A stretch of 50,789 nt of DNA from Acidobacteriota bacterium. GTDB lineage: Bacteria; Acidobacteriota; UBA4820; DSQY01. Both the position numbers and the translations under genes were made by a program. A model generated the notes under the pieces. The model searched no databases and had not been told where the DNA came from. It saw only the letters and a program-made list of their open reading frames with translations. The DNA lies in NCBI GenBank assembly GCA_021833665.1, contig JAKBES010000002.1:1-50789 (forward strand), written 5' to 3'. Positions 2,987 to 34,992 of the stretch are shown in pieces. Every line of letters begins with the position of its first letter. The first letter of the stretch is position 1.

Positions 2987-2998
2987 GCGGAGGGCCAC

Positions 2999-5241: not shown

Positions 5242-5249
5242 GAGCCCCC

Positions 5250-6767: not shown

Positions 6768-6768
6768 C

Positions 6769-7062
6769 ATGGCCACGCCCACGAAAGCTATCACCTACCT
6801 GGCCGGGATCTACTCCATGGGGCAGGTGGTTCTGCCCACGGAACCGCCACCCGTCCTGGTGGGTCTGATTGCGTCGCGGGCCCAGGTCGCACCCCCCCTT
6901 TGGCGGCCCATCGCCTATGTCCAGGCCCAGCCCCGCGCGGGCCGCGTCCTGGTAGCCGTGGCCACGCACATGCAGGCCTTCTCGGCGGTGAAGATGACGG
7001 TGTTCTGGCGGGATGCGTCTGGCCGCCCCAAGCGCGGGCAACTCTGGCCGAGAACCAGATAG
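6769..7062 (+). CDS. hypothetical protein, 97 aa
   Basis: The ATG is 1 nt after the previous stop, and the gene is co-oriented with the virion block. Confidence 0.45.
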   Translation: MATPTKAITYLAGIYSMGQVVLPTEPPPVLVGLIASRAQVAPPLWRPIAYVQAQPRAGRVLVAVATHMQAFSAVKMTVFWRDASGRPKRGQLWPRTR

Positions 7063-7071
7063 CCCCTAGCC

Positions 7072-7106
7072 ATCCTTGTGCCTATGCCTAAAATAGCCAC
7101 AAGGAT
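7072..7106. repeat. perfect 9-bp inverted repeat (ATCCTTGTG / CACAAGGAT) with a 17-nt loop
   Basis: Read directly in the AT-richer 81-nt gap between the tail genes and the acetyltransferase gene. No T-run follows, so it is not a canonical terminator. Confidence 0.6.
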
Positions 7107-7143
7107 ATACTTCGTTCCGTGAAGTGAATCCAGGGCGGACACG

Positions 7144-7857
7144 ATGCTCAGACTGGCGAACCGCGAAGACATTCCCGAGATCAACCGCGTGTTGAACCAC
7201 GAGGAAGTCTACCGGTGGGCGACCATGGGGAAAGACTTGGGCATCCTCGACATCTCCCCTGCTTTCGAGCGCGTGTTCGTCCTGCTGGAGCCCAGCGGCG
7301 GCGGTTGCATCATCCTGGATCCTTTCTCGGAAGGCACCTTCGAGGTGCACACCTGCATCCTTGGTGCCTTTCGGGGCAAGGCCTCTGAGGCGATCGTCCA
7401 GGACACCCTTCGGTTCGTGTTCGCCGAGACGGGGTGCATGGAGATCCTGACGAAGGTTCCCATCGAGAACAAGGCCGCGGACCTCTTCACGCGGCAAGTG
7501 GGATTCATCCGGGTGGCCGATGCCTCCCAGCTTCGGAGCTACCAGCTCTCCATCGAGCGGTGGCCCTACCTCGACACCACCCTGGACCAGTTCTGCCCGC
7601 CGGAACTGGCCGTCCTCGCCATGGACGACTACCAGAGGCGCCTCTTCGGCGCCCTGATGCTCGTCTCCAGCAAGGGGTTCATGGGCAAGGCGGTTTCGGT
7701 CTACAACAAGCATGCGCGCCTCCAGGGCTACCTGCCCGTCGAGGTGTGCGGCATGGATAGCCTCACGGTCGGAGGCCTCGCTATCCACTTCGGGGAAGAC
7801 GGTTCTTTCCGAGTGGAGGATGTATGCCAGCCGCAGCCGCCGGAGCAGGCGTCCTAA
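7144..7857 (+). CDS. GNAT-family (RimJ/RimL-like) N-acetyltransferase domain protein, 237 aa
   Basis: The N-terminal ~135 aa fit the GNAT pattern: MLRLANREDIPEI.., the acetyl-CoA motif region ILGAFRGKASEAIVQDTLRFVF, and ..ILTKVPIENKAADLFTRQVGF. The C-terminal ~100 aa are unrecognised. Confidence 0.55.
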   Translation: MLRLANREDIPEINRVLNHEEVYRWATMGKDLGILDISPAFERVFVLLEPSGGGCIILDPFSEGTFEVHTCILGAFRGKASEAIVQDTLRFVFAETGCMEILTKVPIENKAADLFTRQVGFIRVADASQLRSYQLSIERWPYLDTTLDQFCPPELAVLAMDDYQRRLFGALMLVSSKGFMGKAVSVYNKHARLQGYLPVEVCGMDSLTVGGLAIHFGEDGSFRVEDVCQPQPPEQAS

Positions 7858-8642
7858 TCAGCGCGTGGTCTGCCAACAACGCCGCGAAGGGCCAGCAGAG
7901 GGCCCTCGACCTGCAGCAGAGCGCCTTGGCTTCAGACCAGGCTTTCCGCCAGCAGCAGTACGCCGACTACCAGCGGATGTACGGACCGCTGGAGCAGCAG
8001 CTCATCCAGCAGGCCAGTTCCGAGCAGCCCCTGAACCTGGGCCCGAACTGGGCCAGGATCCAGTCCAATTTCGACCAGGCCGGCCGGAACAACACGGTCA
8101 ACCTGTCGCGGAATGGCATGCTGGGGTCCGGCCTCGACACCCACAACAACCTGGAGAACGCGCGCGCCTACACCTTGAGCGATGCCTTCTCGAAGGGGCT
8201 CCAGGCTCGGGATGCCCTGCGCCAGTCCGTGCTGGCCATGGGCAAGCAGATGCCGCAGCAGGCCGGGTTCGCCTCGCAGGGGAACCTGAATATGGCGGGG
8301 CTCTACGGGCAGCAGGCGGGCCTCTACGGGAACCTTGCGGCGGGCGCCGGGCAGGGTCTGTCCTCCAGCTTGGGCGCTCTCGGCTATGCGCTGGGGAACC
8401 AGGCTCCCACCCCGACGGTGGATGCAAGAACGGTGGGCGGAATGGACTGGTCCTCGCTTTCGCCCATCGGGGCCGGCAGCACGACCATTGACCCCAGCCT
8501 GCTTGGTGGACCGACGCCTGTTCCTTCTGCGTCCCCCCTCTTCGCCTCGAACCTGAACCAGATCCCGTCAGGCCCAGTGTCCTCCGGGAACTACACCAGC
8601 TTCCTCGGGAACAGCCCCCTCGCTGGCCCCAGCGACACGTAG
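7824..8642 (+). CDS. Gln-rich internal-virion/ejection protein candidate, 272 aa
   Basis: GGAGGA 4 nt before the ATG. The protein has an N-terminal hydrophobic stretch followed by Q/A/L-rich sequence. It lies directly upstream of the giant ORF, as the internal-core genes do in T7-like phages. Confidence 0.5.
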   Translation: MPAAAAGAGVLISAWSANNAAKGQQRALDLQQSALASDQAFRQQQYADYQRMYGPLEQQLIQQASSEQPLNLGPNWARIQSNFDQAGRNNTVNLSRNGMLGSGLDTHNNLENARAYTLSDAFSKGLQARDALRQSVLAMGKQMPQQAGFASQGNLNMAGLYGQQAGLYGNLAAGAGQGLSSSLGALGYALGNQAPTPTVDARTVGGMDWSSLSPIGAGSTTIDPSLLGGPTPVPSASPLFASNLNQIPSGPVSSGNYTSFLGNSPLAGPSDT

Positions 8643-8651
8643 GAGATCGCC

Positions 8652-9842
8652 ATGGCTTCGCTCGGCATGATGCTCGCTGGATCCGCCCTGGGCCAGGGCT
8701 CGGCCAACTTCGTTCAGGGGCAGACCCAGGGCGCCTTCGACCGCACGCGCCTGGACCAGATGCAGGCCCAGAACGACCAGTCGCAGAAGGTGTGGAACTT
8801 CCAGAACAACCAGATGGACCGGACGCTTCAGGAGCAGCAGATCGGCGACACGCCGGTTGATGGCGCCACCGACGCGGACCGCCTGAGCCAGTTGGCTGAC
8901 ATCGCCGGGAAGACCGGGCGCGGAGACCTCCAGCGGAAGTACAGCACACTCGCCATCCAGGCCCGCCAGGGACAGGCACTCATGGGTGTGGCAAACGCCA
9001 GCCGGGCGATCACCATGGGCCAGTTCGGGCCAGCGGCTCAGATGCTCAACCAGTCGGGGTTGTTCGGGCAGATCCATAGCATTGGCTTGGCTGATGACGT
9101 GGAACAGGATCCCAACAACCCCACCTACTCGGTCTACACGGGTGGAGCTCCTGACGATCAGGAGAACCCGACCCAGGGCCCTCATGTCCACGTGACCCAG
9201 CAGATGCTCTATGCGCTCCAGACGGACCCAAAAGAGGCGCTGCACTGGATCTCCTGGTCTCAGGCCATGGGCCAGAAGAACACCACGGCCCAGAACAAGG
9301 TGGATGCCCAGGCGGCGCATTGGAATGACCAGACCAACCACTGGCAGAACCAGGATGCCGCGGCCCTGCAAAAGGCACGTTCCCTGGGCTCTGGTGGGGC
9401 TGGAAAGCTCACCGACAAGCGGTGGCTCTATCAATGGGCTCAGAGCAGGATCGGCCAACCAGGGGGGTTCAAGGACGACGCCGAGGCCATGCAGTGGGCC
9501 ATGGATCCGAACCGGCAGAACAAGGACTACTGGCAGGCCACCAGGGCTGCTCTGGAGATCAACAAGGGAGGGGGCCTCTTCACGGCCTCTGATTTGGCCC
9601 AGACGATTCGAGATGTCTTGGGCAAGTCCCCTCTCACCCAGTCCCCGGGTGGTCCCGGCACACCAGCACCAAAGCCTGGCGCCAACCCCGCGGCACCCGA
9701 CTTCAAGGGCCTCGGTTTCCAGCAGGACCCCAAGTCTGGCAACTGGAAGAACCCGAAGACGGGCGTCTGGTTCAAGACGGATCAGCAGGGGAATGCGCTC
9801 GCATGGTCGAACACCAAAGGCACCTGGGTTCCGGTCCAGTAG
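8652..9842 (+). CDS. Gln-rich internal-virion/ejection protein candidate, 396 aa
   Basis: AGGAGA before the ATG, Q/N/W-rich composition, and the same positional argument as the preceding gene. Confidence 0.5.
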   Translation: MASLGMMLAGSALGQGSANFVQGQTQGAFDRTRLDQMQAQNDQSQKVWNFQNNQMDRTLQEQQIGDTPVDGATDADRLSQLADIAGKTGRGDLQRKYSTLAIQARQGQALMGVANASRAITMGQFGPAAQMLNQSGLFGQIHSIGLADDVEQDPNNPTYSVYTGGAPDDQENPTQGPHVHVTQQMLYALQTDPKEALHWISWSQAMGQKNTTAQNKVDAQAAHWNDQTNHWQNQDAAALQKARSLGSGGAGKLTDKRWLYQWAQSRIGQPGGFKDDAEAMQWAMDPNRQNKDYWQATRAALEINKGGGLFTASDLAQTIRDVLGKSPLTQSPGGPGTPAPKPGANPAAPDFKGLGFQQDPKSGNWKNPKTGVWFKTDQQGNALAWSNTKGTWVPVQ

Positions 9843-9854
9843 GAGAAGGAAGAT

Positions 9855-12800
9855 ATGTCCTTCAACCCTGATTTCAATCCGGACTTCAACCCTGACGCCA
9901 AGGCTACGGCCGAGGCCAAACCTTTCAACGCAGGGTTCAATCCGGACTTCAACCCGGATGCCAAGGCTACGGCCGAGGCCAAACCTTTCAACGCAGGGTT
10001 CAATCCGGACTTCAACCCGGATGCCGTGACTGCTCCCGTCGCCGTGGCCGACATGCCCTCCACGGCCGGCATCCCGCGATTCGCGGCCAACGAAGGCGAT
10101 AGCCCCCTCCAGGCACCTCCCAGGGCCCTTCAGGGCGCCATCGACCAGGCGAAGGCCGCCCACCAGGCCCTGGTGGAGAAGCTGGTGGCCCAGGGAATGT
10201 CCCGGGAGGATGCCGAAAACTACCAGGTCGGAACCCTCAGCGGCATGTCCCCCGAGGCCTGGCAAGAGACGCTGGCCCAGGACGAAGCGCGACGCAAGAG
10301 TGTGACCCAGCGGATCATCGAGGGGGCAGCCCACGGCGCGGCCACGCCCATTGTGACCCTGGCCAACACCCCCAGCGGCTTGATCCGGGAAGCAGGAAAG
10401 CTCACCGGATCCCAGGCCCTGGAGCAGGCCGGGGAGTCCCTGCGGCCCACGGAGGCACAGCAGATTCTACGGGACACGGCACCGCAGACCGGCGTCGGGA
10501 AGGCCGCGGATTTCCTCGGCAACGTGGGCATGTCCGTGCCGACCCTCGGCGTGCTCGGCACGGCCGGCTTCGCCACCCAGAGCGCCGGCAACACGATGAA
10601 CGAGGCACTGGACAAGGGCGCCAGCCCTGGGAAGGCCCTGGCGGCTGGCGGGCTCCAGGCGGCCAAGGACGTGGCCCTGATGACGGCTTTCAAGCTCGTG
10701 CCGAGCCTCCAGACCACCAACCCGGCCGTGGCCGCCACGGTGAACTCCCTTGCCAAGAACACAGGCATGGGCCTGACCCTGACCTACGGCGGCAACCTGA
10801 TCGACAAGCTGACCTGGGACCCGGAGCGGGGCGTCTTCGATGGAACCCAGCAGGCCCTGGCCACGGGCCTGGCCTTCGGCCTCCTCCATGTGCCGCAGGA
10901 GATGCGCGCCGCCGGCTACCGGCAGCTGGCCCTGGACCATCCGCAGGGCGTGGACGGGTACATCGCAGACCTGCAGGCGAAGAAGGATCTCCTCAGCAAG
11001 ACCGAGGGGGACATGCAGAACACCATCACCGTGAGCCCCGAGGGCAACCGCGTCGAGAATTACGACCGGCAGGCCTTCGACAAGGTGAACGGCTCCATCA
11101 CCGAGGCCCTGCGCGTGGCCAGGAAGTTCCGCGACCAGCTCCTGAAGCAGGGAAAACTGGACGCGGCTCTGGGCACCGGCCGGGTCAACACCCCCACCCC
11201 TTCCCCGGAGGCCCCCCGTGGCGAAAGCTCCCCAGAAGCCCCTGCCCCTGCCTCCCTCGCCGGAGGACCGCCGGTCCCAGCTCCAGAAGGCGGGAGCGGG
11301 CCTCTCCCGGGTGCAGGCCAAACGCCCGGCGCCCCGCCCCTCCCAGCCCCCATCCTCCCCGGTGCTGCCCCGGCCAATCATCCAGGAGTTCCCGCGCCGG
11401 GCAACGCCGGACCCGACAACCCTGCCGCAGGTCCTGGCCCTCAAGCCCCCGCCGAAGCCCCGGAAGTAGCCATTCTGGCCCAGCAGGTCCAGCAGCTTCA
11501 GGGACTCTCTGACCAGATGGCCGCTCGGGCGGCCCAGCATCCCCATGTGGAGGAGGCCCAGCAGGACGCCATTGAGGCGGAAGATTTGCTCCAGGCCGCG
11601 AAGGACCGGCTGGGCTACGTGGCGCCCGAGCACCCCCTTCTCGCGCCTCCTGGGGCCGCCTCTGGCCCAACTGGTAAGGATTCCTTACAGGTTGCCCAGG
11701 CGGCACAACCTGTACCGCAATCGGCACAACCTGTACCGGAACCAGCCCCGACGCCGGCCCAGGTCCAGGCCCTCCAGCCTTCGGGCCACGCCACGACACC
11801 TGCGGATCTGCCAACCCAAACGGAACAACCTGTACCCGAAGTATCTTCTTCCGGTACAGCCCCGGCCGCGCCTCCCGAGAGCCACACGCACACGGCTATG
11901 GACGAGACCTGGGTCCAGGGTAAAGCCCAAGGCCTCGGCCTCACCCTTCCTCGTTGGCAGCCAGGCATGGACACCGGGGCCTATCTGGAGAAGCGTGCCG
12001 AGTCCCTGGCGCAGAACCCCGACGCCTTCCTGAAGCTCTACCAGTCCATCCCCGAAACCATGGGCGGGAAGATCCTGGACGGTGACGTACTGGACATGCT
12101 CCTTAAGGGTGACCACCCCGAGCACTATGACCTGTTCAACAACTTCAAATGGTCGGATCCAGAACAGGAAATGTTCTACGAGGACCATTCCTCCAAACTC
12201 TACAAGACGCTCCTGAAGAACACCTTGGAGCAGCCTGCAAAGGCAGGAGAGCACTTCCTCATCACCATGGGGGCGCCAGGCAATGGCAAGTCCACTGTGG
12301 CTCAGGCCCTTCTGAGGGAACCCGGAGCAGAGCACGTCAAAGGCGTGATTGATACCCCTGGGCGGAACATCAATGACGTGGACAAGGTCATCCGCGCCGC
12401 CAGGGCCAAGGGCTACGCCGTGGATGTCCTCTTCGTGAAGCGGCCGGTTGAGGATGCGGTCAAGAGCCTCATGCTTCGAACCCGCCGGGAAGGGCGAGGC
12501 CTATCCCCTTTCGACACCTCGGAAATGGGCTTGTCCCAGGCTACAGGCCTGTTCCCAAAACTGGTGGGTCGGTTCGCCCAGACCCCAGGCGTGAACTTCC
12601 GCGTGATCGAGAACCGGACAGGGGCCCCCCACCAGGAGGTGGCAAACCTGCATGCCCACGGCCCGGAAGCCACCATTGCTGCGGGGAAGTTGGGCTACAT
12701 AGACCGAGCGGGTAAGCCAATCAATGGTCTTGAATTGGCAGGGAGAGCTGCCAAAGCCTACACTGACACGAGGGATACCCAAGATGCCCGAATCCACCCC

Positions 12801-15800
12801 GAATACATTAAGCGGTTCGACCCCGAGGTTACCAACGCCCTACGATCTCTCCAAGGTGTTCGAGAGCCAGTCGTTCAAGGACGGGGTGATGGAGATCGTG
12901 CACCAGAACGAGGCCAAGGAGCATCTGGCGGGGGAACGGGCACTCCAGAACAAGAAACGGGCGCAGGCCTGGGGCCAGGAGAACAGCCGGTCTCCAGAGG
13001 AAGTGGACCAGTACCGGAAACGCCTGGACAGCGGCAACCTGGAGTAGGCCGCCCCGGCATCCTGACGGGCGCCCGGGCCCTGGCCGGCACGGCCCCCGAC
13101 CACTTCGCCTACCCCTACCAGCAGCTGGGTGATGCGGTGGTGAGCCGGGCCCTGGCCGGCGAGAAACTGGACAACGTGGGCCTGCGCCGCCTGGCAGCCC
13201 AGTTCTTCCATGGCCAGCCCTCGCAGAAGGACCTCTACGACGCCATGGAACTCGGCCTGAACCGCCACATCCTGGCCCACCCCGAGCAGTTCAACGTGGA
13301 GCAGGTCCCCATTGAGGACGTGATCCAGAACCTGGAAGGGCTCGTCTCGAAGCTCCCCACCCAGACCCACCGGGAGGCCGGGGCCAACGAGTTCCAGCAG
13401 TACAGCACGCCCCCCTTCTACGCGGCCGTCGTGGCGTGGGTCGGGAAGGTCCAGCCCTCCGACCTGGTGCTGGAGCCCTCGGCCGGCGTCGGCGGCATCT
13501 CGGTCTTCCCGCGGCTGGCTGGGGCCCGAGTGATGGTCAACGAGTTCGACCGGGCGCGCCGGGCCAAGCTCCTGGAGGCCCTGCCCGGCTGGGAATCCAT
13601 CCGGACGGAAGATGCCCGGTTCATCCACGCTCACCTGCAGAAGGCAGGGGCCCGGCCCACCGTAGTCCTGATGAATCCGCCCTTCTCCAGCACCTCGGGG
13701 AAGGTCCATGGCAAGCGGGACTCGGCCCAAGGGGTGAAGCACATCGACGCGGCCCTGGCCTCCTTGGTCCCTGGCGGGCGCCTAGTGGCGATCATGGGCG
13801 ACATGGAGGGCGCCGCCTGGCGGGCCTACCAGAGCCGCCTCCAGGCCGACCCCAACGTGACGATCCGGGCCCTGGTGGGCGTGGACGGGAAGGCCTACCG
13901 CAAGTACGGCACCACCTTCGACTCGGTGGTGCTGGTCATGGACAAGGTTCCCCCCGTTCCTGGGGCCAAGCCCATCACGGGCAAAGTTGCCAATCTGGAA
14001 GAATTGGCCGATCTTTTGAAGGGGGTCCGCAATGACCGACCTGGTGACCAGCCTGGAAGCCTTTCCTCTCAACCGAGCGGCGGCCCGGCTCCTGAAGCTG
14101 CAGGGGCTCCCGGTGCTGTCCAGCAGCCAGCCGCTGACGCAGGCGGTGGCCGAGGGCCTAAACCACTGGAATCCCAGGGGGGACCAGGACAGCCGAGTGC
14201 TGCCGCGAATCGCCCGGCTGGCGGAAGCGGGAAGCCCGGAGGCCTTCGCGGAGGCGCTGCGCCCGTTCATGTGGCCCCTGGCGTGGGACCCGAAGCAGGC
14301 GAAGGTGGAGGGGCTGCCCCCGTACGGCCCGGAAACGCTGGACCAGTACCTGCCGGCGAACCTGGCGGCCGAGGCGGGGAAGTGCAAGAACCTGTCCGAA
14401 CTCCTGAACATCCTGGAGGGGCAGGAGGCCTGGACGTTCAAAATGACCACGTAGCCCCGGTCCAGGCGCAGACCCTCAAGGCCCCGGCACGCGCCGCAGA
14501 GGCCGACGAGAACCCCGATTCGGTCTTCGCCAACTACCGGCCTTCGAAGGTCTCCTTCCCGGGCTCCCAGCCTCACCTGGGCGACCTGGTGGAGTCCCAG
14601 GCCATGTCCGCGGTGGACCTGCCGGACGCCCGGCCCACGACGAAGCTGCACCTGCCGGAGGAGATGATCAAGACCGGCAAGCTGTCGGAGGCCCAGCTCG
14701 AGGCGGACTATTACGCGACCCAGGCCACGAACCAGATGCTGGATGACGGCCGGCGCCAGGGCTTCCTCATCGGCGACGGGACCGGTGTCGGCAAGGGGCG
14801 CGAGATCGCGGGCTTCATCATGTCCACCCTGAACGCCGGGCATGGGGGCGGCAAGGCGGTGTGGCTCTCGAAGAACACCGACCTCTTTCGGGATGCCACG
14901 CGGGACTGGACCGGCATCGGAGGCCATCCGGACCACCTCATCGACCTCTCCAAGATCAAGGCCACCGAGGGCGCCAAGGGCGCCAAGACAGTGGCGCCCA
15001 TCCCCGTGGAGAAGGGCGTCCTCTTCGGCACCTACGCCGCGGTCACGGGCGAGAAGGGCGAGGTTCCCGGGGCGCGGAAGCTCCAGCTCCAGGAATGGCT
15101 CGGACCCGACTTCGACGGCGCGATCGTGCTGGACGAGGCCCACCTGGCCTCGAACCTCGGCCTGGCCCGAACCAGCCGCGGAAAGGCGAAGCCCTCCCAG
15201 ACGGCCACCGGCATGATGGAGATCCAGCGCATGTTCCCGAAGGCCCGGGTGGTCTACGTGACCGCCACGGTGGCCAGCGACCCCTCCCAGCTGGCCTTCC
15301 TGGACCGCCTGGGCCTCTGGGGGAAAGGCAAATCCTTCGACCGGGCGGCGGATCTCCTGGCGGCCGTGGACAACGCGGGCCTCGCCGGCATGGAACTGGT
15401 GGCCCGTGACCTGAAGGCGCGAGGCCTCTACATCGCCCGGAACCTCAGCTACCACGGCGTCAATTACCGGACCCTGGAGCATCGGCTGTCGTCGGACCAG
15501 ACCGTGGCCTACAACACGGCCGCGGGGGCCTGGCAGAAGGTGCTGGAGAACGTCCACCAGGTCATCGAGGACATGACCGGCGGCAAGAATTCCGGCAAGG
15601 CCAAGGGGGCGGCCCTTTCCAAGTTCTACGGGCAGCAGCAGGCCTTCTTCAACAGCCTGCTCACCAGCCTCACGTTGCCCTCCGCCTTCGCCGACATGCA
15701 GAAGGCCCTCGAGGCAGGCCACAGCGTCGTCGTCCAGCTCACCGAGACCGGGGAGGCCCGCCAGGGCCGGTCCATCGAAGAGGCCACCCAGCGGGCTAAG

Positions 15801-18800
15801 GAAACCGGCGAGGACATGGACGTGGCCGCCCTGGACCTCAGCCCGAAGGACATCCTCATCGGCTTCCTAAAGTCCGGCTTCCCCGTGAATGCCCTGGAGG
15901 AGGTGGAGGACGACCACGGGAACAAGTTCTGGCAGGTGGTCCGGGATGCCGCCGGGAACCCCGTGGAGGATCCCGAGGCCGTGGCCAAGCGGGACGCGCT
16001 GATCGCCGAGATCGCCACCCTCAACCTGCCCGGGTCCGCCCTGGACGAGATCCTGAAGGAGTTCGGGACGGACAAGGTGACGGAGATCACGGGCCGAAGC
16101 GAACGGCGGGTCTTCCTGCCGGATGGAACCGCCAAGATCGAGAAGCGCACCGACAAGCAGGTGGAGGCAGACAAGAACGCCTTCATGGGCGACCAGAAGC
16201 GCATCCTCATCTTCTCCAAGGCGGCCAACACCGGCATGAGCTTCCATGCCGACAACACGGCCCAGAACCGGACCAAGCGCATCCACTACGTCCTGCAGGG
16301 CGGGTGGAACGCCGCGGACGCCATCCAGGGCCTCGGCCGCACCCACCGCACCAACCAGGCCCAGGCCCCGGAGTATGTGCTGGTCACGACCGACCTGGGC
16401 GGCCACAAGCGGTTCACCTCCACCATCGCCCGCCGCATCTCCCAGCTGGGGGCCCTCACCAAGGGCCAGCGCCAGGCCAGCGCCAGCCTCTTCACCGAGA
16501 AGGACAACCTGGAGAGCCCCACCGCCCTGCGGGCCCTCTCTGCCTGGTACGACCAGATCATGCAGGGCCCCATCCCCCTCCCCAACGGGGACAGCCTCTC
16601 CGAGGCGGAGTTCGAGGACGCGACCGGCCTGCACCTCCGGGACCACCAGGGCATGCCGCTCCTGGAACGGCCGCCCATGAAGAAGTTCCTGAACCGCGTG
16701 CTGGCCCTGCCGGTGGACCAGCAGAACGCCACGTTCGACTCCCTGGCCCACCGGATCGAGGAGCAGTACCACCTGGACGAGCAGGCGGGCCTGCTGGAAA
16801 AGGGCCTCCAGAACATCCCCGTGGTGAGCGCCAAGGTGGTGGAGGAGGACCCCTTCTACAAGGACGAGGACACCGGGGCGAAGACGGTCTACCAGAAGAT
16901 CGAGGCCCGGCAGAAGGTGAACTACCTGGACTTCGACAAGATCAACCAGAAGAGCCGCGACTTCGAGGGGTTCTACCAGGATCCCAAGCGCAAGATCCCC
17001 TTCGCCATCACGAAGGGTCGCGCCGAGATGAAGCCGGATGGGACCGTGATCCAGCACTACAAGCTGGCCGGCCCGACCACCATCGCCTACCGCAGCAACC
17101 TCGATTTCGAGAAGCTGGAGCAGCTGGACCCGCAGCAGGCCAAGGAGGCCTGGGAGGCCTACAAGCAGGAGAACGGGGACACGGCCACCAAGAACTTCCA
17201 CATGATCACGGGGGCCATGCTCAACATCTGGAACCGGTTCCCCGCGAACCTCCCCATGGAGGTGGGCCGGATCCGGCTTTCGAACGGCAACACGGCCATG
17301 GGGCGCCTCATCCCCGAGTCCCGCCTGACCGAAGTGCTCCAGCGCATCGGCGCCGAGAAGGCTCTGGATGCCAGCCAGAAGGCCCTGCGGGACATGAAGG
17401 GATCGGGAGTGCTGGATTCTGTGCTCCGGGATGGCCGGATCGTCTCCCTGGCCAACGGCTTCCGGGTGCAGCCCGTGCGCCGGAGCGGCGAGTACTTCGC
17501 GGTGCTCGACGGAGTGCCCCACCAGAGCGCGATGCACGCCCTGGTCCAGCAGTACCAGGGCTGGCGCATGGAGCAGTTCCAGGGCCAGTACGGCGCCCAG
17601 TACAAGGTGGTCATCCCGGATAACCCCGAAGCCAAGGCCAGCCTGGACACCTACCTCAAAGCCGCCCCGGTGCGCTCTGTCTCGGAACCCAGGCCCGGGT
17701 GGGTGCGTCCCCGCGAGGGTGAGCGTGGCGCCGCAGCCGTGGAGCTCCTGACGGCGCCGGCCAAGGTGGTCCAGGCCATCGCGCGCGGCCCGGTCGGGGA
17801 GGCCCTGCGCGGGGCAAAGGACATGCTCAAGGCCGTCGTGGCGCCAGCGACCATCAATGAGATGAGCCAGCGGGCCGCGGACATCCACAGCGGGAAGCTG
17901 GCCCAGCTGCACCTGCAGGACGCGCGCGCGCGGAAGGTGCTCGAGCATGCCCACAAAGCCATGGCGGGGATGACCAAGGACCAGGTGCTGGACCTCTTCG
18001 ATGTGCTGGAGGGGAAGGAAGACCTCTCCACCATCGAGGACCCAAAGATCGCAGACGCCATCAACTTCATGCGGAAGACCCTGGAGCAGGACTACCTGGA
18101 CGTGGTTGCGACCGGGAAGAGCCTCAACTACATCGAGAACTACTTCCCCCACATGTACGCCAAGCCAGAGAAGGCCCGGCCATTCCTAGAGGAGTATGCC
18201 AAGCGGCCCATGGCCGGGCGGCAGGATTGGGCCAAACACCGCTCCATCCCCTACCTCTCCGAGGCGGTGCGGGAGCGGGGCCTGGAACCGGCCTCCTGGA
18301 ACCCCATTGACCTCTTCCTGGCCCGGCACTTCGATATGCAGAAGTTCGTCGCAGCCCACCAGATCCTCGATGCCTTCAAGAAGGAGCGGGTTGGCGGTGC
18401 GAAGATCATCCGGTACTACAAGGCCATCCAGACGCCGCCCGAGGGCTTCGTCAAGCTGGATGACCGCATCGCGGAGATCACCAGCATCCGCTCAGCCCTC
18501 GTGAAGAGCCCGGAAACGGGTAGGTTTGAGGGGAAGCCACTGCTCCCTGGCTCGAAGATCACCTACGGCAGCTACTACGCCCCTGCGGCCGTGGCCCGGA
18601 TCTTCAACAACTACCTCTCCCCAGGCCTGGACGGGACCCTGCTGCGCACGCCCTACCGGTTTGTCCGGAGGGCCAACAACTTCCTCAACATGGGTCAGCT
18701 CGGGCTCTCCGGGTTCCACGCCACCTTCATCACCATTGAGGGCGCGGCCGGGAGCCTCAGCCGCGGCATGATGAAAATCATCCGGGATGGGAATCCGGAG

Positions 18801-20525
18801 GGGCTTCTGGACATTCTGAAGGGGGCTGCCCTGCCCGTCTCGGTGGCCGAAACCTTCAAGGAGGGCTTGGACTTCCGGAAGGCCCTGCTCTCCGAGGACT
18901 GCCCGCCCGAGTTCAAACCCCTGCGGGATATGTTCATCCGCGGTGGCGGCCGGGTCTCCATGGACACGGAGTACGAGGCCGGCTTCACCAAGCAGTTCAT
19001 GGATGCCTGGCGCACGGCCCTGGGTGGTTCCGGCGTGCTGGAGGCCATGCTGGGGAAGGATGGAGTCTACCAGCGCAGCCGCGGCAAGGAGGTCTGGGAA
19101 CGGGCCATCGCCGCCGGCAAGGGCACCATGGCAGCCCCGTTCGCCCTGGTGGAAGCCCTCGCGGCCCCGATCATGAAGGTCTACGTGCCCATCATGAAGC
19201 TGGGGACCATGGCGCAGCTCTTCGCGGACGAGATGGCCCGGCTGCCGGAGGATGCCACGCCAGCCCAGATTGACCGGGTGGCCCGGAAGGTGGTGGACCA
19301 CGTGGAAGACCGCATGGGCCAGATGACCTACGACAACCTGCACTGGCACGCCTTCACCAAGCAGGTCATGCAGCTGTCCTTCCGGGCCGTGGGCTGGGAT
19401 GTGGGCTCCTGGCGCATGATCCTCGGCGCCGGCCAGGACACCCTGGCCATGGCCCCGCGGGCGGCCCGCGCCCTGGCCTCGACGATGACGAGCGACCCCG
19501 AGGCCAAGAAGTTTCTCGATGACGCGCGCGCGCACCGCGATCGGATGGCGGGCGAGTTCGGGCACAACCGCTGGTTCACCTACAACATGGCCCAGACCTT
19601 CGCCGTCGTGGCGATGGTGGGCCTGCTGTCAGGCCTGCTCACCTGGATCTTCACGGGGGAGCCGCCGAAGGACCTTCAGGACCTCCGGCATTTCCGCACC
19701 GGGCGCATGGACAAGTACGGGAAGCCCGAGCGCCGGCAGTTCGCCAGCTACATGAAGGAGATCGAGGACATCCTCTACATCACGGCGGAGTCCAGCCACT
19801 TCAACTTCTCGCCCGCCATGCAGTACCTGTGGGGGAAGAAGGCGCCCTGGCTGAACGCCCTGGTGAAATTCGGGGGCAACAAGGACTGGCGGGGCCAGCA
19901 GGTCTACACGCCCATCACCGAGGGGCACCCCAAGAAGACGCTCGAGGACCTGGGCAAGGCCGCCCTGCTGGAGCTCTCGCCCATCTCCCTGGTCCAGTCG
20001 GCGGAAAAGTGGGACGTGCAGGGTGGGTGGAAGTCGATCCTTCCGGCCGCAGGCCTGACCAAGCCGAAACAGGAGAACGTCAACACGAAGGCCGAGAACC
20101 GCCTGGTGGAGATGCTGGCCGACCGCATGCCCCGGGTCATCGAGAAGACCAAGGGGGATCGGGAGTCCCAGCTGCGCATCGCCAAGGACGCCTTCGTGCT
20201 GGGCAACCGGAAGCCCATGGAGGAGCTCCAGAAGGAGGGCCTGCTGACGGCCCGGGACCAGAAGAGCATCATGCGGAACTTCCAGGCCCAGTCACTTATC
20301 GTCCGTCTTTCGAACGCTACCAACATCCAGGCAGACGATTTAATGAAGATCTGGGACGACATGACGCCGCAGGAGAAGTCCGCGGTGTTCCCAGCCATGG
20401 CTCGAAAGATTGGCACGGCCTTCCGATCTACGCCCCCAGCCCAGCGAGACGCCCTCAAAGAAAAGTGGAACCAGATCAAGCAAGAAGTAAAATCAATCAA
20501 GGCGGAGCCGCGATCTTCTAGTTAG
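9855..20525 (+). CDS. giant polyvalent (P1 DarB-like) virion/ejection protein, 3,556 aa: zeta-kinase-like, N6-adenine MTase, Strawberry-notch-type SF2 helicase and a long C-terminal region
   Basis: A single open frame of 10,671 nt with AGGAGAAGGA before the ATG. Motifs seen are ITMGAPGNGKST, LEPSAGVGG followed by VVLMNPPFS, GDGTGVGKGR, VLDEAH and QGLGRTHRTNQ. See the findings for frame anomalies at two linkers. Confidence 0.8.
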   Translation: MSFNPDFNPDFNPDAKATAEAKPFNAGFNPDFNPDAKATAEAKPFNAGFNPDFNPDAVTAPVAVADMPSTAGIPRFAANEGDSPLQAPPRALQGAIDQAKAAHQALVEKLVAQGMSREDAENYQVGTLSGMSPEAWQETLAQDEARRKSVTQRIIEGAAHGAATPIVTLANTPSGLIREAGKLTGSQALEQAGESLRPTEAQQILRDTAPQTGVGKAADFLGNVGMSVPTLGVLGTAGFATQSAGNTMNEALDKGASPGKALAAGGLQAAKDVALMTAFKLVPSLQTTNPAVAATVNSLAKNTGMGLTLTYGGNLIDKLTWDPERGVFDGTQQALATGLAFGLLHVPQEMRAAGYRQLALDHPQGVDGYIADLQAKKDLLSKTEGDMQNTITVSPEGNRVENYDRQAFDKVNGSITEALRVARKFRDQLLKQGKLDAALGTGRVNTPTPSPEAPRGESSPEAPAPASLAGGPPVPAPEGGSGPLPGAGQTPGAPPLPAPILPGAAPANHPGVPAPGNAGPDNPAAGPGPQAPAEAPEVAILAQQVQQLQGLSDQMAARAAQHPHVEEAQQDAIEAEDLLQAAKDRLGYVAPEHPLLAPPGAASGPTGKDSLQVAQAAQPVPQSAQPVPEPAPTPAQVQALQPSGHATTPADLPTQTEQPVPEVSSSGTAPAAPPESHTHTAMDETWVQGKAQGLGLTLPRWQPGMDTGAYLEKRAESLAQNPDAFLKLYQSIPETMGGKILDGDVLDMLLKGDHPEHYDLFNNFKWSDPEQEMFYEDHSSKLYKTLLKNTLEQPAKAGEHFLITMGAPGNGKSTVAQALLREPGAEHVKGVIDTPGRNINDVDKVIRAARAKGYAVDVLFVKRPVEDAVKSLMLRTRREGRGLSPFDTSEMGLSQATGLFPKLVGRFAQTPGVNFRVIENRTGAPHQEVANLHAHGPEATIAAGKLGYIDRAGKPINGLELAGRAAKAYTDTRDTQDARIHPEYIKRFDPEVTNALRSLQGVREPVVQGRGDGDRAPERGQGASGGGTGTPEQETGAGLGPGEQPVSRGSGPVPETPGQRQPGVGRPGILTGARALAGTAPDHFAYPYQQLGDAVVSRALAGEKLDNVGLRRLAAQFFHGQPSQKDLYDAMELGLNRHILAHPEQFNVEQVPIEDVIQNLEGLVSKLPTQTHREAGANEFQQYSTPPFYAAVVAWVGKVQPSDLVLEPSAGVGGISVFPRLAGARVMVNEFDRARRAKLLEALPGWESIRTEDARFIHAHLQKAGARPTVVLMNPPFSSTSGKVHGKRDSAQGVKHIDAALASLVPGGRLVAIMGDMEGAAWRAYQSRLQADPNVTIRALVGVDGKAYRKYGTTFDSVVLVMDKVPPVPGAKPITGKVANLEELADLLKGVRNDRPGDQPGSLSSQPSGGPAPEAAGAPGAVQQPAADAGGGRGPKPLESQGGPGQPSAAANRPAGGSGKPGGLRGGAAPVHVAPGVGPEAGEGGGAAPVRPGNAGPVPAGEPGGRGGEVQEPVRTPEHPGGAGGLDVQNDHVAPVQAQTLKAPARAAEADENPDSVFANYRPSKVSFPGSQPHLGDLVESQAMSAVDLPDARPTTKLHLPEEMIKTGKLSEAQLEADYYATQATNQMLDDGRRQGFLIGDGTGVGKGREIAGFIMSTLNAGHGGGKAVWLSKNTDLFRDATRDWTGIGGHPDHLIDLSKIKATEGAKGAKTVAPIPVEKGVLFGTYAAVTGEKGEVPGARKLQLQEWLGPDFDGAIVLDEAHLASNLGLARTSRGKAKPSQTATGMMEIQRMFPKARVVYVTATVASDPSQLAFLDRLGLWGKGKSFDRAADLLAAVDNAGLAGMELVARDLKARGLYIARNLSYHGVNYRTLEHRLSSDQTVAYNTAAGAWQKVLENVHQVIEDMTGGKNSGKAKGAALSKFYGQQQAFFNSLLTSLTLPSAFADMQKALEAGHSVVVQLTETGEARQGRSIEEATQRAKETGEDMDVAALDLSPKDILIGFLKSGFPVNALEEVEDDHGNKFWQVVRDAAGNPVEDPEAVAKRDALIAEIATLNLPGSALDEILKEFGTDKVTEITGRSERRVFLPDGTAKIEKRTDKQVEADKNAFMGDQKRILIFSKAANTGMSFHADNTAQNRTKRIHYVLQGGWNAADAIQGLGRTHRTNQAQAPEYVLVTTDLGGHKRFTSTIARRISQLGALTKGQRQASASLFTEKDNLESPTALRALSAWYDQIMQGPIPLPNGDSLSEAEFEDATGLHLRDHQGMPLLERPPMKKFLNRVLALPVDQQNATFDSLAHRIEEQYHLDEQAGLLEKGLQNIPVVSAKVVEEDPFYKDEDTGAKTVYQKIEARQKVNYLDFDKINQKSRDFEGFYQDPKRKIPFAITKGRAEMKPDGTVIQHYKLAGPTTIAYRSNLDFEKLEQLDPQQAKEAWEAYKQENGDTATKNFHMITGAMLNIWNRFPANLPMEVGRIRLSNGNTAMGRLIPESRLTEVLQRIGAEKALDASQKALRDMKGSGVLDSVLRDGRIVSLANGFRVQPVRRSGEYFAVLDGVPHQSAMHALVQQYQGWRMEQFQGQYGAQYKVVIPDNPEAKASLDTYLKAAPVRSVSEPRPGWVRPREGERGAAAVELLTAPAKVVQAIARGPVGEALRGAKDMLKAVVAPATINEMSQRAADIHSGKLAQLHLQDARARKVLEHAHKAMAGMTKDQVLDLFDVLEGKEDLSTIEDPKIADAINFMRKTLEQDYLDVVATGKSLNYIENYFPHMYAKPEKARPFLEEYAKRPMAGRQDWAKHRSIPYLSEAVRERGLEPASWNPIDLFLARHFDMQKFVAAHQILDAFKKERVGGAKIIRYYKAIQTPPEGFVKLDDRIAEITSIRSALVKSPETGRFEGKPLLPGSKITYGSYYAPAAVARIFNNYLSPGLDGTLLRTPYRFVRRANNFLNMGQLGLSGFHATFITIEGAAGSLSRGMMKIIRDGNPEGLLDILKGAALPVSVAETFKEGLDFRKALLSEDCPPEFKPLRDMFIRGGGRVSMDTEYEAGFTKQFMDAWRTALGGSGVLEAMLGKDGVYQRSRGKEVWERAIAAGKGTMAAPFALVEALAAPIMKVYVPIMKLGTMAQLFADEMARLPEDATPAQIDRVARKVVDHVEDRMGQMTYDNLHWHAFTKQVMQLSFRAVGWDVGSWRMILGAGQDTLAMAPRAARALASTMTSDPEAKKFLDDARAHRDRMAGEFGHNRWFTYNMAQTFAVVAMVGLLSGLLTWIFTGEPPKDLQDLRHFRTGRMDKYGKPERRQFASYMKEIEDILYITAESSHFNFSPAMQYLWGKKAPWLNALVKFGGNKDWRGQQVYTPITEGHPKKTLEDLGKAALLELSPISLVQSAEKWDVQGGWKSILPAAGLTKPKQENVNTKAENRLVEMLADRMPRVIEKTKGDRESQLRIAKDAFVLGNRKPMEELQKEGLLTARDQKSIMRNFQAQSLIVRLSNATNIQADDLMKIWDDMTPQEKSAVFPAMARKIGTAFRSTPPAQRDALKEKWNQIKQEVKSIKAEPRSSS
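9873..10025 (+). repeat. 63-bp tandem repeat, about 2.4 copies (FNPDFNPDAKATAEAKPFNAG)
   Basis: Copies at 9873-9935 and 9936-9998 are near-identical, and a partial third copy starts at 9999. All are in frame at the N-terminus of the giant ORF. Confidence 0.9.
12050..12650 (+). other. zeta-toxin-like P-loop kinase domain of the giant ORF (approximate bounds)
   Basis: Walker A GAPGNGKS at about 12270-12293, followed by ..KGYAVDVLFVKRPVEDAVKSLMLRTRREGR, which resembles zeta/AAA_33-type kinases. Confidence 0.55.
12784..13047 (+). CDS. nested +1-frame ORF, 87 aa, at the kinase-MTase junction
   Basis: GAGGGA lies 8 nt before the ATG, and the ORF ends in TAG. From 12841 on, 59/68 codons end in G/C (hand count) against 22/69 in the giant frame. 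The sequence is helical and charged rather than low complexity. Confidence 0.4.
   Translation: MPESTPNTLSGSTPRLPTPYDLSKVFESQSFKDGVMEIVHQNEAKEHLAGERALQNKKRAQAWGQENSRSPEEVDQYRKRLDSGNLE
13100..13950 (+). other. gamma-class N6-adenine DNA methyltransferase domain of the giant ORF (approximate bounds)
   Basis: Motif I LEPSAGVGG (about 13470-13496) precedes motif IV NPPF (VVLMNPPFS, about 13663-13689). Confidence 0.75.
14032..14454 (+). CDS. nested +1-frame ORF, 140 aa, at the MTase-helicase junction
   Basis: AAGGGGG, a 6-nt spacer and ATG at the start, and TAG at the end. 127/140 codons end in G/C (hand count) against about 66/141 in the giant frame. The W/F/L-containing sequence looks globular. 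Confidence 0.5.
   Translation: MTDLVTSLEAFPLNRAAARLLKLQGLPVLSSSQPLTQAVAEGLNHWNPRGDQDSRVLPRIARLAEAGSPEAFAEALRPFMWPLAWDPKQAKVEGLPPYGPETLDQYLPANLAAEAGKCKNLSELLNILEGQEAWTFKMTT
14690..16500 (+). other. Strawberry-notch-type SF2 helicase core of the giant ORF (approximate bounds)
   Basis: Motif I GFLIGDGTGVGKGREIAG (about 14760), motif II IVLDEAHLA (about 15124) and motif VI IQGLGRTHRTNQAQAPEY (about 16322). Confidence 0.8.
19596..19652 (+). other. predicted transmembrane helix in the C-terminal region of the giant ORF
   Basis: TFAVVAMVGLLSGLLTWIF is the only strongly hydrophobic 19-mer I saw in the last ~950 aa. Confidence 0.45.
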
Positions 20526-20557: not shown

Positions 20558-20911
20558 ATGATCGCGCTTCTGCAAGTTATCCAAGGCGCCACGGGTGCAT
20601 CCGACCCGGAGCGCACCTTCGTTTCCCTCAGCAGCTTCGACTGGGCCACGGTCATGGTGCTTGGGGCCATCGCCTGGTTCTTCTTCGTGCGGGACTACCG
20701 CAGCAGGGACGAACTGGCGAAGACCGTGAAGGCCCTGGCAGATGCGGTATCAGACCTCCGCGCCTTGATGGCCGAGCAGTACGTGAGCAAGGACGATCAC
20801 CGCCGGGAGATCGACCGCCTCTCGGATGACATCGACACCTGGGCCAACCGGTTCCAGCGGGATCTGGAGAGCCATCGGGATGAGTGTGCCGCCCGGCGGC
20901 CGGCTCAGTGA
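20558..20911 (+). CDS. holin-like protein (one TM helix plus charged coiled-coil-like tail), 117 aa
   Basis: The TM segment is WATVMVLGAIAWFFFV. The gene lies directly upstream of the endolysin. Confidence 0.4.
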   Translation: MIALLQVIQGATGASDPERTFVSLSSFDWATVMVLGAIAWFFFVRDYRSRDELAKTVKALADAVSDLRALMAEQYVSKDDHRREIDRLSDDIDTWANRFQRDLESHRDECAARRPAQ

Positions 20912-20925
20912 AGGAGAGCCACACC

Positions 20926-21465
20926 ATGGCCCTGGACCTCGAAGCCCACATCACCGAGAACTTCCAATGGAAGGAGTTCCTCCACAGCGATGCGGCCGCG
21001 CACGCTGGCGTGGCCTTCCCGGAGCCTCCGGAGGACATCCAGGCCAACATCCGCAAGGTGGCGGCGAAGGCCGAGGAAGCCAGGGGCATCCTGGGTGTGC
21101 GGGTGAACATCCACAGCGGCTGGCGCCCCACCGAGCCGGTGGACATCAATAAGCTGGCCGGGTCCGTCTCGAAGACCAGCGCCCACATCGAAGGGCTGGC
21201 GGCTGACCTATCCCCGGAAGGGATGCAGATCCCTGATGCCCTGCGGACGCTCGTGAACCACCCCACCTTCATGGAGGGCGTGGACCAGTTGATCAACGAG
21301 CGGGGGTGCCTGCACATGGGCCTGCCGTGCAAGGCCAGCGAGTACCAGCCCCGGCATGAGGTCAGGGGCGAGACCTACATCCAGAACCCCAAGACGAAGC
21401 AGGTGGAGCGGCACTACCCGCTGCTCTTCGTCTGGAAGCCCAGCCCGGGGGTGGCCCATGTTTGA
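20926..21465 (+). CDS. endolysin, peptidase M15 (D-Ala-D-Ala carboxypeptidase-like / L-Ala-D-Glu peptidase) family, 179 aa
   Basis: AAGGAG lies 8 nt before ATG 20926. Motifs are SGWRP..., SKTSAHIEGLAADL and ERGCLHMG, matching the SG(Y/W)R / SxHxxGxAxD / H zinc-ligand pattern. Confidence 0.8.
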   Translation: MALDLEAHITENFQWKEFLHSDAAAHAGVAFPEPPEDIQANIRKVAAKAEEARGILGVRVNIHSGWRPTEPVDINKLAGSVSKTSAHIEGLAADLSPEGMQIPDALRTLVNHPTFMEGVDQLINERGCLHMGLPCKASEYQPRHEVRGETYIQNPKTKQVERHYPLLFVWKPSPGVAHV

Positions 21466-34640: not shown

Positions 34641-34721
34641 GATAGATTTAGTTGGACTTGTAATCCCAAATTCCTATTTAGGCGGCATCTACCCAAAAAA
34701 GGTCTGTCGCCTAATTTCAAG

Positions 34722-34985: not shown

Positions 34986-34992
34986 TCATCAC

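Follow-up and report, generated by a model that had tools for sequence, protein, structure and literature searches.

The stretch of DNA analysed here, referred to as the window, is the 50,789 nucleotides (nt) of contig JAKBES010000002.1, from an Acidobacteriota bacterium (assembly GCA_021833665.1). At positions 9855..20525 of the forward strand, the window contains a single uninterrupted, ATG-started open reading frame (ORF) of 3,556 codons, with the Shine-Dalgarno sequence GGAGAAGGA immediately 5' of the ATG. Its product, the 3,556 amino acid (aa) protein that is the subject of this report and is here called the giant protein, consists of five ordered parts with Pro/Gly/Ala-rich linkers between them. 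These are an FNPD repeat with a Gly/Ala-rich domain, a zeta-1-type kinase, an N6-adenine methyltransferase (MTase), a Strawberry-notch (Sno) helicase with a C-terminal extension, and a mostly helical module of ~930 aa, here called the C-module. The features of the gene are as follows:

9855..20525, forward strand: whole gene, ATG to stop, for the predicted 3,556 aa polyvalent protein (ORF, codon-position GC content, GGAGAAGGA Shine-Dalgarno sequence)
9873..10025, forward strand: N-terminal FNPD-rich tandem repeat, period 63 nt (21 aa), 2.4 copies (Tandem Repeats Finder, 97% matches)
10152..11054, forward strand: N-domain (aa ~100-400), Gly/Ala-rich and mildly hydrophobic (homologous N-terminal domains in relatives)
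11187..11954, forward strand: linker 1 (aa ~445-700), Pro/Ala-rich (composition)
11982..12749, forward strand: predicted zeta-toxin-type (zeta-1-like) P-loop kinase, aa ~710-965 (family profile, conserved residues)
13107..14024, forward strand: predicted gamma-class N6-adenine MTase including an N-terminal helical part, aa 1085-1390 (homologs, profile A4, motifs)
14571..16811, forward strand: predicted Strawberry-notch superfamily 2 (SF2) ATPase/helicase (Pfam AAA_34 and Helicase_C_4)
13107..17735, forward strand: MTase-Sno cassette, aa 1085-2627, of which 16812-17735 is the Sno C-terminal extension (tblastn to plasmid Sno proteins)
17736..20522, forward strand: C-terminal, mostly helical module, aa 2628-3556 (homologs, conserved residues, AlphaFold2 model)
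19596..19652, forward strand: hydrophobic helix TFAVVAMVGLLSGLLTWIF, aa 3248-3266 (Kyte-Doolittle 2.08)

The codon-position GC pattern, with position 2 lowest, is identical in all seventeen 600 nt blocks of the gene, and one frame is therefore coding across its whole length. With ~2.4% stops per random codon, we calculated the probability that a frame this long would be open by chance to be ~e^-86; no antisense ORF in the window exceeds 761 aa. The first-pass annotation of this DNA had reported one uninterrupted frame of 10,671 nt with approximately 2.4 copies of a 21 aa repeat and Pro/Ala-rich linkers, and all three observations hold, the linkers being seen by composition as Pro/Gly/Ala-rich stretches at aa ~450-700, 1000-1084 and 1395-1560. 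Every motif it quoted was found at the expected place, namely ITMGAPGNGKST at aa 803-814 and DVLFVKRP at aa 857-864 in the kinase, LEPSAGVGG at aa 1206-1214 and VVLMNPPFS at aa 1270-1278 in the MTase, GDGTGVGKGR at aa 1640-1649, VLDEAH at aa 1758-1763 and QGLGRTHRTNQ at aa 2158-2168 in the helicase, and TFAVVAMVGLLSGLLTWIF in the C-module. The catalytic motifs of kinase, MTase and helicase are all intact, and the profile searches support all three of the enzymatic domains that had been proposed. A megablast search with the whole gene returned no match.

When slices covering the kinase, MTase and Sno regions were compared with the PDB as single sequences, nothing significant was returned, and family profiles were therefore needed for the kinase and the MTase. 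On its own, the giant protein scored 18.8 bits against the Pfam Zeta_toxin model, under the 22.3 cutoff. When aa 1-1000 were searched exhaustively against 1.84 billion representatives, 45 proteins matched, and 30 of these 45 kinase-region homologs match Zeta_toxin. A profile (A5) made from a 24-sequence alignment of the giant protein's domain and 23 short homologs matched the 'Zeta_1 toxin' of PDB entries 6EPH and 6EPG with the whole domain covered (E 2.2e-29). Residues G806, G811, K812, D833 and R875 are invariant in this alignment and present in the giant protein, as are the near-invariant (≥90%) R863-P864 and R881. The Walker A Lys, the Asp after the P-loop, the Arg residues and the family membership together identify the domain, at the level of sequence, as a zeta toxin (PF06414), in agreement with the initial description of a zeta-toxin-like kinase. 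Zeta toxins phosphorylate UDP-N-acetylglucosamine and related UDP-sugars. The full-domain profile match, the Walker A Lys, the Asp and the Arg pair are shared with the zeta-1 toxin of Neisseria gonorrhoeae (6EPH/6EPG), whereas the kinase described here is an internal module of a much larger protein and not a component of a toxin-antitoxin pair; no epsilon-type antitoxin turned up, and no search aimed at one was made. A pattern scan of IMG/VR with the kinase slice found no relatives.

For the MTase, Pfam alone gave no match in the giant protein and PHROG matches were weak (PHROG 6263, 'DNA methyltransferase'). A query spanning aa 691-1400 returned no homologs, which we attribute to the low-complexity linker, and a clean MTase core (aa 1085-1390) returned 151, several of them named methylases and some with N6_Mtase, MTS or a fused AAA_34. 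In a 42-sequence alignment, the TP of the FSTP motif (YSTP, aa 1183-1186, in the giant protein), LEPSAGxG and NPPF are invariant or nearly so, and a conserved helical region (aa ~1085-1180) precedes the TP motif. The corresponding profile (A4) matched HsdM-type adenine MTases in the PDB, the best being 7vru (3.7e-8), followed by StySJI M (1.1e-7) and EcoKI M (3.5e-6). With its N-terminal TP motif and NPP(Y/F), the domain is predicted to fall within the EcoKI/TaqI-like gamma class, as had been proposed. The Strawberry-notch assignment was recovered with Pfam directly: AAA_34 (aa 1573-1888, E 1.5e-98) and Helicase_C_4 (aa 2062-2319, E 2.6e-78) are both matched over nearly the full profile length, and Walker A, DEAH and motif VI are all present. 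The helicase is, on these profile matches, a bona fide Sno ATPase.

MTase and helicase form a single cassette that is otherwise found mainly in plasmids. When the 1,543 aa of the cassette were used as a tblastn query, 624 plasmids matched, 240 of them at ≥80% coverage, and 309 were conjugative. The best plasmid matches listed, to proteins named 'strawberry notch-like NTP hydrolase', cover 82-90% of the cassette at ~34-40% identity. These plasmid and integrative and conjugative element (ICE) proteins of ~1,400-1,500 aa are collinear with the cassette through the MTase, both Sno domains and the C-terminal extension; they are stand-alone proteins of conjugative elements, whereas in the giant protein the unit is fused in-frame within a gene of a phage structural operon. 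Only one of 50,697 phage records contains the cassette, that of the cultured Bacteroides phage BS-TP4 (PQ571277.1), where gp3 (1511-17686), an unannotated 5,391 aa 'hypothetical protein' adjoining the portal gene, has homologs of the MTase (at aa 2577-2866) and of the Sno helicase described here. No C-module is detectable in BS-TP4 gp3.

The first-pass annotation had called the giant protein DarB-like. P1 DarB (2,255 aa) likewise has an N6-adenine MTase followed by an SF2 ATPase and is encoded by a phage late gene next to head genes, and hhalign detects remote homology between the two MTase domains (93%, E 3.5e-7), which share YxTP, LEPSAGTG and NxPF. N-terminal to the MTase, where the DarB family has an LPD36 domain, the giant protein has its conserved helical region of aa ~1085-1180, and Pfam matched no LPD anywhere in it. 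However, the cassette has no pairwise similarity to DarB (best BLASTP E 0.84), no P1-like match was found when parts of the giant protein were compared with the phage records by tblastn, and the helicase is Sno-type (AAA_34 plus Helicase_C_4) rather than the SWI2/SNF2 type of DarB. DarB, a stand-alone head protein of a myovirus, depends on DarA/Hdf to be packaged, whereas the dyad examined here sits inside a larger fusion with a chassis of its own. The likeness is thus confined to the MTase, and on sequence grounds the giant protein is not a DarB ortholog.

The class to which it does appear to belong is that of the polyvalent proteins, in which disparate catalytic domains are joined in one polypeptide encoded among late or virion genes (Iyer et al. 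2017, J Bacteriol, PMC5512222). The MTase-SF2 helicase dyad is the third most prevalent polyvalent theme, its Strawberry-notch variant was noted, and a zeta-toxin-like kinase was listed as cargo (PMC5512222). The giant protein has domains of disparate predicted activity in one ORF (zeta kinase, N6-adenine MTase, Sno ATPase), its dyad and its kinase come from this recurrent repertoire, and its gene lies between tail-fibre/internal-virion-like genes and an endolysin gene. It differs in that the ~930 aa C-module uniting its family matches no Pfam LPD or other Pfam, PHROG or NCBIfam model. Its domain content marks it as a well-supported new example of the polyvalent class, as first suggested, and not as a new kind of system.

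The C-terminal ~950 aa had been described as without recognisable motif apart from one strongly hydrophobic helix. The helix is there, and the giant protein's C-module indeed matches no Pfam, PHROG or NCBIfam model, its homologs likewise having no Pfam match in this part. The ~930 aa do, however, contain many invariant or nearly invariant residues and define a large family. When aa 2601-3556 were used as a query, 41 homologous proteins of roughly 500-1,670 aa (most 1,000-1,600) were returned, and in all 41 the module (aa ~2630-3550 of the giant protein) lies at the C-terminus, preceded by 0 to ~1,050 aa of other sequence. In their alignment 17 residues are invariant and ~50 more are at least 90% conserved. 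An AlphaFold2 model of the C-module (predicted local distance difference test, pLDDT, 84; predicted template-modelling score 0.84) is mostly helical with a small beta element. Comparison of PDB sequences with the C-module profile gave coiled-coil noise only, and transporter-like helical-bundle matches obtained with Foldseek against the PDB (E ≥0.17, template-modelling score (TM) <0.15) were rejected as noise. Against the predicted viral structures of BFVD, the module gave matches of probability 1.0 with E down to 3e-14. The partners are second to fourth fragments of long proteins of uncultured phages, annotated as 'large polyvalent protein-associated domain-containing', 'zeta toxin domain containing', 'DNA 3'-5' helicase', 'DNA methylase', 'RelA/SpoT', 'LT_GEWL' and 'ART-PolyVal'. 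The fold also matches proteins of Cellulophaga phages, Arthronema virus TR020 and Escherichia phage PTXU04 in BFVD.

With pattern scans, 61 C-module loci were located in GTDB genomes that span many phyla (among them Acidobacteriota, Nitrospirota, Verrucomicrobiota and Planctomycetota), and 220 contigs with the module were found in IMG/VR. The 102 complete ORFs of the family have a median length of 1,738 aa; 40 are of at least 2,000 aa and 18 of at least 3,000 aa, the maximum being 4,182 aa. Cargo-poor members of at most 784-923 aa (L021, L011) also exist, which suggests that the C-module has a role of its own. In the 20 largest members the cargo comprises InPase (five cases), GGDEF, SNF2 and ResIII (four each), LPD5, LPD1 and ddrB-ParB (three each), AAA_34, MuF_C and RadC (two each) and single cases of Zeta_toxin, ART-PolyVal, Kinase-PolyVal, SLT, Acb1, a sigma-70 region and N6_Mtase. 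LPD3 is likewise among the domains of proteins that share the C-module. By its domain annotations this cargo is the hallmark polyvalent-protein repertoire, and the alignments show that the C-module is the core kept throughout a large (pro)phage protein family, in which the N-terminal cargo varies greatly. The size of the giant protein, its zeta-kinase fusion and its long C-terminus had all been thought unusual. Size is not, given the family lengths and the 5,391 aa of the BS-TP4 protein; the kinase recurs in at least seven relatives, among them L075, L099, P0051 and P0054; and the C-terminus is the core of the family and not an appendage. No other protein among those retrieved combines zeta kinase, MTase-Sno and C-module.

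Within the C-module, TFAVVAMVGLLSGLLTWIF is the only stretch of the giant protein above Kyte-Doolittle 1.8. The position of this helix is kept across the family, with the consensus hRMAYxxALPxxxGxxGAxxQYLxTG, and the 10-residue blocks of the AlphaFold2 model that cover it have mean pLDDT values of 80-95. In the family the best 19-mer mostly reaches 1.2-1.7; values above 2.0 occur only in the giant protein, P0001 and P0002, with P0033 at 1.99. Of the earlier suggestion that the C-terminus inserts into membranes, the conservation of the helix position is in favour, whereas transmembrane-like hydrophobicity is confined to the close clade of the giant protein. A latent membrane-insertion helix is possible on this evidence.

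Two relatives illustrate how the gene may have been put together. The first (L002) lies in a prophage on a 198 kb contig, has the same FNPD N-terminus and is 68% identical to the giant protein over aa 980-2692, which includes the MTase, Sno and the start of the C-module. In the kinase position it has an unrelated module of ~150 aa with a weak, sub-threshold match to PBECR2, and both Gln-rich genes found upstream of the giant gene are kept (60% and 50% identity). This gene (L002:2010-12148) was called as two ORFs of 2,665 and 715 aa, with homology lost between aa 2692 and 2820 of the giant protein, inside the C-module; long-read frameshift errors or a real pseudogene are both possible. The second relative, P0046 (2,124 aa), consists of the FNPD N-terminus, a linker, the zeta kinase and the C-module, and lacks aa ~1032-2624 of the giant protein. 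Its contig has the gene order of the window, with ORFs of 234, 256 and 403 aa, the gene, the endolysin and, on the other strand, the DUF927 primase. FNPD repeats at the extreme N-terminus were found only in these two relatives and the giant protein. As the cassette matches plasmid Sno proteins from end to end and is missing from P0046, the MTase-Sno unit appears to have been inserted whole. The giant gene is best read, from these comparisons, as an N-domain/kinase/chassis gene with a plasmid-type MTase-Sno gene captured in-frame. Independent fusions of MTase-Sno to a C-module are present in IMG/VR (L129, 3,665 aa; L127; L092).

A third relative, P0001, is the closest to the giant protein in the C-module. 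It starts near the C-module, on a contig that is truncated 148 nt upstream. On this contig (L001:1-300) a DarB-like MTase motif-I fragment, YTAPDVVSDMWGMV..GGSVLEQSAGNG, lies ~20 nt 5' of the P0001 start in another frame and gives way to sequence that looks non-coding; a deletion that left a remnant of different MTase cargo, a frameshift or an assembly artefact may explain it. On the P0046 contig (JGI 3300075153), the gene directly after P0046 (9461-12577) encodes 1,038 aa, as many as P0001 has. The shared length may be a coincidence; should the two be related, the P0046 phage would have two tandem chassis paralogs.

Homology extends to the remaining parts of the giant protein. N-domain homologs are found at the N-termini of P0043, P0049, P0051, P0071 and L099, and an AlphaFold2 model of this domain, from a 6-sequence alignment, was unusable (pLDDT 42.6). 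A segment of linker 1 (aa ~529-691) is conserved in L002, P0042, P0044 and P0048. P0042, whose kinase is 62% identical, was considered as a truncated ortholog and rejected, as it is a complete 1,257 aa protein with neither MTase nor C-module.

In the window, the giant gene is the last of a structural operon before the lysis genes, and its immediate neighbours are:

7824..9842, forward strand: two Gln-rich ORFs of 272 aa and 396 aa, candidate partner internal-virion proteins (composition, conservation)
20558..21465, forward strand: lysis genes, a 117 aa PHROG 'lipoprotein' ORF and a 193 aa endolysin (phrog_462, phrog_7885; phrog_894, Peptidase_M15_3)

The Gln content of the two upstream ORFs is 9.9% (7824-8642) and 12.6% (8652-9842) compared with 5.4% in the giant protein. 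Neither has a family annotation, and the two ORFs upstream of P0046 correspond to them in size (256 and 403 aa). Directly downstream are the 'lipoprotein' ORF (20558-20911) and an M15-type endolysin (20884-21465). The neighbourhood is in these respects the one first described, with two Gln-rich ORFs before the gene and lysis genes after it. Directly 5' of the Gln-rich pair, a 237 aa ORF (7144-7857) gave matches to Acetyltransf_3 (GNAT; E 0.009, below cutoff) and to phrog_651 'head morphogenesis' (E 1e-4), and a 234 aa ORF holds the same place at P0046. A tail fibre gene is also near, and a 908 aa ORF (260-2986) matches phrog_511 'internal virion protein' (E 2.8e-24), over aa 649-782 only. With a DUF927 primase, a YqaJ exonuclease, a DnaB-like helicase and an integrase also present, the window is part of a temperate phage-like element. 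The integrase (phrog_1) is followed by a dip in GC content (0.59 compared with ~0.65), and beyond the dip lies a minus-strand, early-type block with DUF5131, DUF3310, DUF7694, a SbcC/AAA_23-like ATPase and a Bro-N/Ant anti-repressor (regions 32515-33867, 34000-36000 and 36185-49600). This block could be the opposite arm of this prophage or else belong to a second element. No tRNA and no terminal repeats were found, nor any att-like repeats around the integrase.

More complete gene orders were seen in two contigs of ~40 kb (L003 and L004), in which a capsid gene (Phage_capsid_2), a gene for a ~912-970 aa protein, two or three small to medium ORFs, the C-module homolog and beta-helix/fibre genes follow one another. 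L003 also has a T7-type portal gene (Head-tail_con) upstream and a lysozyme gene further downstream. The ~912-970 aa upstream protein is common to 11 loci, and the 908 aa ORF of the window has no BLAST similarity to those of L003 and L004. In the window and in the relatives examined (L002, L003, L004 and the P0046 contig), the family member is located in the structural operon.

The giant gene had been placed in the slot that T7-like phages use for internal proteins, and this placement agrees with L003 and L004, where the homologs follow tail-tube and small internal-protein genes and precede fibre genes (in L003 also a lysozyme gene), an order resembling the T7 order gp12-13-14-15-16-17. Further likenesses are that the gene is the largest of the late operon, that one C-module family member has, like gp16, an SLT domain, and that in gp16, as in the N4 virion RNA polymerase, an enzymatic domain is fused to a large helical delivery/encapsidation region. 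The proposal that the giant protein serves as the large ejectosome subunit fared less well. When the C-module profile (A1) was compared by hhalign with T7 gp16 and with a 7-member gp16 alignment, the probabilities were 0.6% and 0.15%, respectively; a short YxPHxY motif common to the C-module and gp16 did not survive the 7-sequence gp16 profile; and the BFVD entries 'internal virion protein D' and 'Internal (Core) protein' were insignificant (E 0.06-0.09). As the tests for homology to gp16 and gp15 were negative, 'ejectosome subunit' is a positional analogy.

A second comparison is with Escherichia phage PTXU04, from which a fragment with the C-module fold (Foldseek E 2.9e-3, probability 1.0, TM 0.35) is contained in BFVD entry A0A482MT02, which we take, from organism name and size, to be gp25. 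Like the giant gene, that for gp25 is the last of the structural operon and adjoins the lysis genes; gp25 differs in its other cargo and in having no sequence or profile similarity to the C-module (hhalign negative). It is a 2,197 aa putative polyvalent protein encoded at the end of the structural operon, and its knock-down strongly reduces plaquing (PMC11879866). Such an effect is more in keeping with a role in structure or entry than with a counter-defence that the phage could do without.

Taken as a whole, the first-pass interpretation is partly supported: the enzymes, the class and the operon stand, and the DarB likeness, the unusualness and the ejectosome role were overstated or unsupported. 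We consider it fairly probable that the gene product is a polyvalent protein of a phage, with a conserved C-terminal chassis as its base, and that it acts in the following way. The protein would be expressed late, with the structural genes, and a few copies would be built into the capsid interior via the C-module, perhaps with the two Gln-rich proteins. At infection it would be threaded through the tail domain by domain, which the flexible linkers would allow, and the C-module with its conserved hydrophobic helix would stay at the envelope or the DNA-entry site, while the cargo would act in the first minutes of infection. The Sno motor could then track along the entering DNA as the attached methylase marked adenines, giving protection from restriction in cis, a logic proposed for P1 DarB and the MTase-helicase dyad (PMC5512222). 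The zeta kinase could phosphorylate UDP-sugar wall precursors, leading to a local weakening of wall synthesis and easier entry, or to disabling of the host. It is the position of the gene that suggests packaging in the virion and ejection.

Several observations weigh against this proposal. The window has no portal, terminase or capsid genes, and the 908 aa ORF has no Pfam or PDB sequence match. The C-module has neither homology to T7 gp16 or gp15 detectable by hhalign nor a match to a solved structure by Foldseek, and the link to PTXU04 is at the level of fold, weak (TM 0.35) and accompanied by a negative profile comparison. A tblastn search of the 50,697 phage records with the C-module returned nothing, so no phage with virion proteomics shares detectable sequence; a search with a more typical family member was equally empty. 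The MTase may act on DNA or on RNA; some of its homologs are named 'RNA methylase', and RNA methyltransferases occur among the weaker PDB matches of its profile. In the literature we found no bacterial MTase-Sno protein with a tested function. An injected zeta toxin also seems awkward for a temperate phage.

In one alternative explanation the protein is packaged, with the C-module serving only for encapsidation or core assembly and not as an ejectosome subunit that spans the membrane, and the conduit is made by other proteins such as those of the Gln-rich ORFs. The N4 virion RNA polymerase provides the precedent, as its C-terminal region of ~1,400 aa is for encapsidation and its N-terminal helical region for injection (PMC5512222). 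The C-module model, which is confident, soluble-looking and helical with one hydrophobic stretch, would suit such a role, as would the moderate hydrophobicity of the helix in most family members and the lack of gp16 homology. On the other hand, the helix position is conserved and, in many members, no other 19-mer of the protein is more hydrophobic, one relative has an SLT transglycosylase as T7 gp16 does, and contigs in T7 order place the gene where gp16 would be; we regard this explanation as rather unlikely, though it is the strongest of the alternatives. Slightly less likely again is that the giant protein is a precursor from which independently acting kinase, MTase-Sno and chassis proteins are released by cleavage at the Pro/Gly/Ala-rich linkers, either ahead of packaging or after it. 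The three long linkers of low complexity offer a protease obvious points of access, and processing has been proposed as a general polyvalent theme, with P1 DarA cleaved during head maturation (PMC5512222). Yet Pfam, PHROG and NCBIfam scans found no peptidase domain in the giant protein, none was found among the scanned neighbouring ORFs, and both the N4 virion RNA polymerase and ArdC/TraC1 are transferred unprocessed (PMC5512222).

A further alternative would be that the giant protein is not a virion protein at all but, like the plasmid MTase-Sno proteins, a cytoplasmic enzyme of counter-defence or DNA modification that happens to be encoded beside structural genes. The overwhelmingly plasmid/ICE distribution of the cassette (624 plasmids compared with one phage record) points that way, and packaging of family members is deduced and not experimental. 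We nonetheless judge this improbable, as the cassette is embedded in-frame between N- and C-terminal parts specific to the family, the fold partners of the C-module and the cargo of relatives are polyvalent-type, the gene is in the structural operon in the window and in all four relatives examined, and a conserved 930 aa chassis would be needless for a cytoplasmic enzyme. Least likely by far is that two or more genes are really present and have been made to look like a single ORF by a chimeric assembly or by consensus-masked frameshifts. The calling of L002, the closest full-length relative, as two ORFs could be taken to favour this, as could the start of P0001 near the C-module. However, 3,556 codons without a stop and with a uniform coding-frame signal argue for one gene, the break in L002 lies inside the conserved C-module and not at a domain boundary, in a contig named like a long-read assembly, the P0001 contig is truncated just upstream, and independent fused ORFs of 2,100-4,180 aa are found in many contigs.

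Descriptions of the polyvalent class, of the methylase-helicase dyad and its Sno variant, and of zeta kinases as cargo date from 2017, and the findings here leave that picture standing. What is new here is modest, namely the combination of domains, the history of cassette capture between plasmid and phage, and the C-module as the chassis shared by a widespread group that is mostly uncultured. Differences among the three closest relatives fall at defined junctions, with a zeta kinase in the giant protein where L002 has a weak PBECR2-like module, and MTase-Sno present in the giant protein and absent from P0046. The giant protein is accordingly a clean, fully resolved example of the assembly of a multi-enzyme phage protein by cassette swapping. 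As MTase-Sno is otherwise a gene of conjugative plasmids, it also links the entry-phase strategies of plasmids and phages.

More tentatively, and with somewhat less confidence than we have in the proposal as a whole, we suggest that the ~930 aa module may be an undescribed 'delivery chassis' of podovirus-like (pro)phages that are widespread among many bacterial phyla, both an essential internal or ejected protein and a platform for plug-in effectors, with the giant protein a recent in-frame capture of a complete plasmid-type MTase-Sno gene. Zeta kinase, a PBECR-like nuclease, MTase-Sno, InPase, GGDEF, ART, Acb1 and SLT may then be interchangeable effectors. The C-module has no match in Pfam, PHROG, NCBIfam or the PDB, folds confidently, is found in hundreds of viral contigs and has variable cargo upstream, and might therefore serve as bait for cataloguing delivered effectors. 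If the suggestion is true, the chassis would be a sequence handle for the systematic mining of injected phage effectors, and the C-module is a candidate essential component of an uncultured group of phages.

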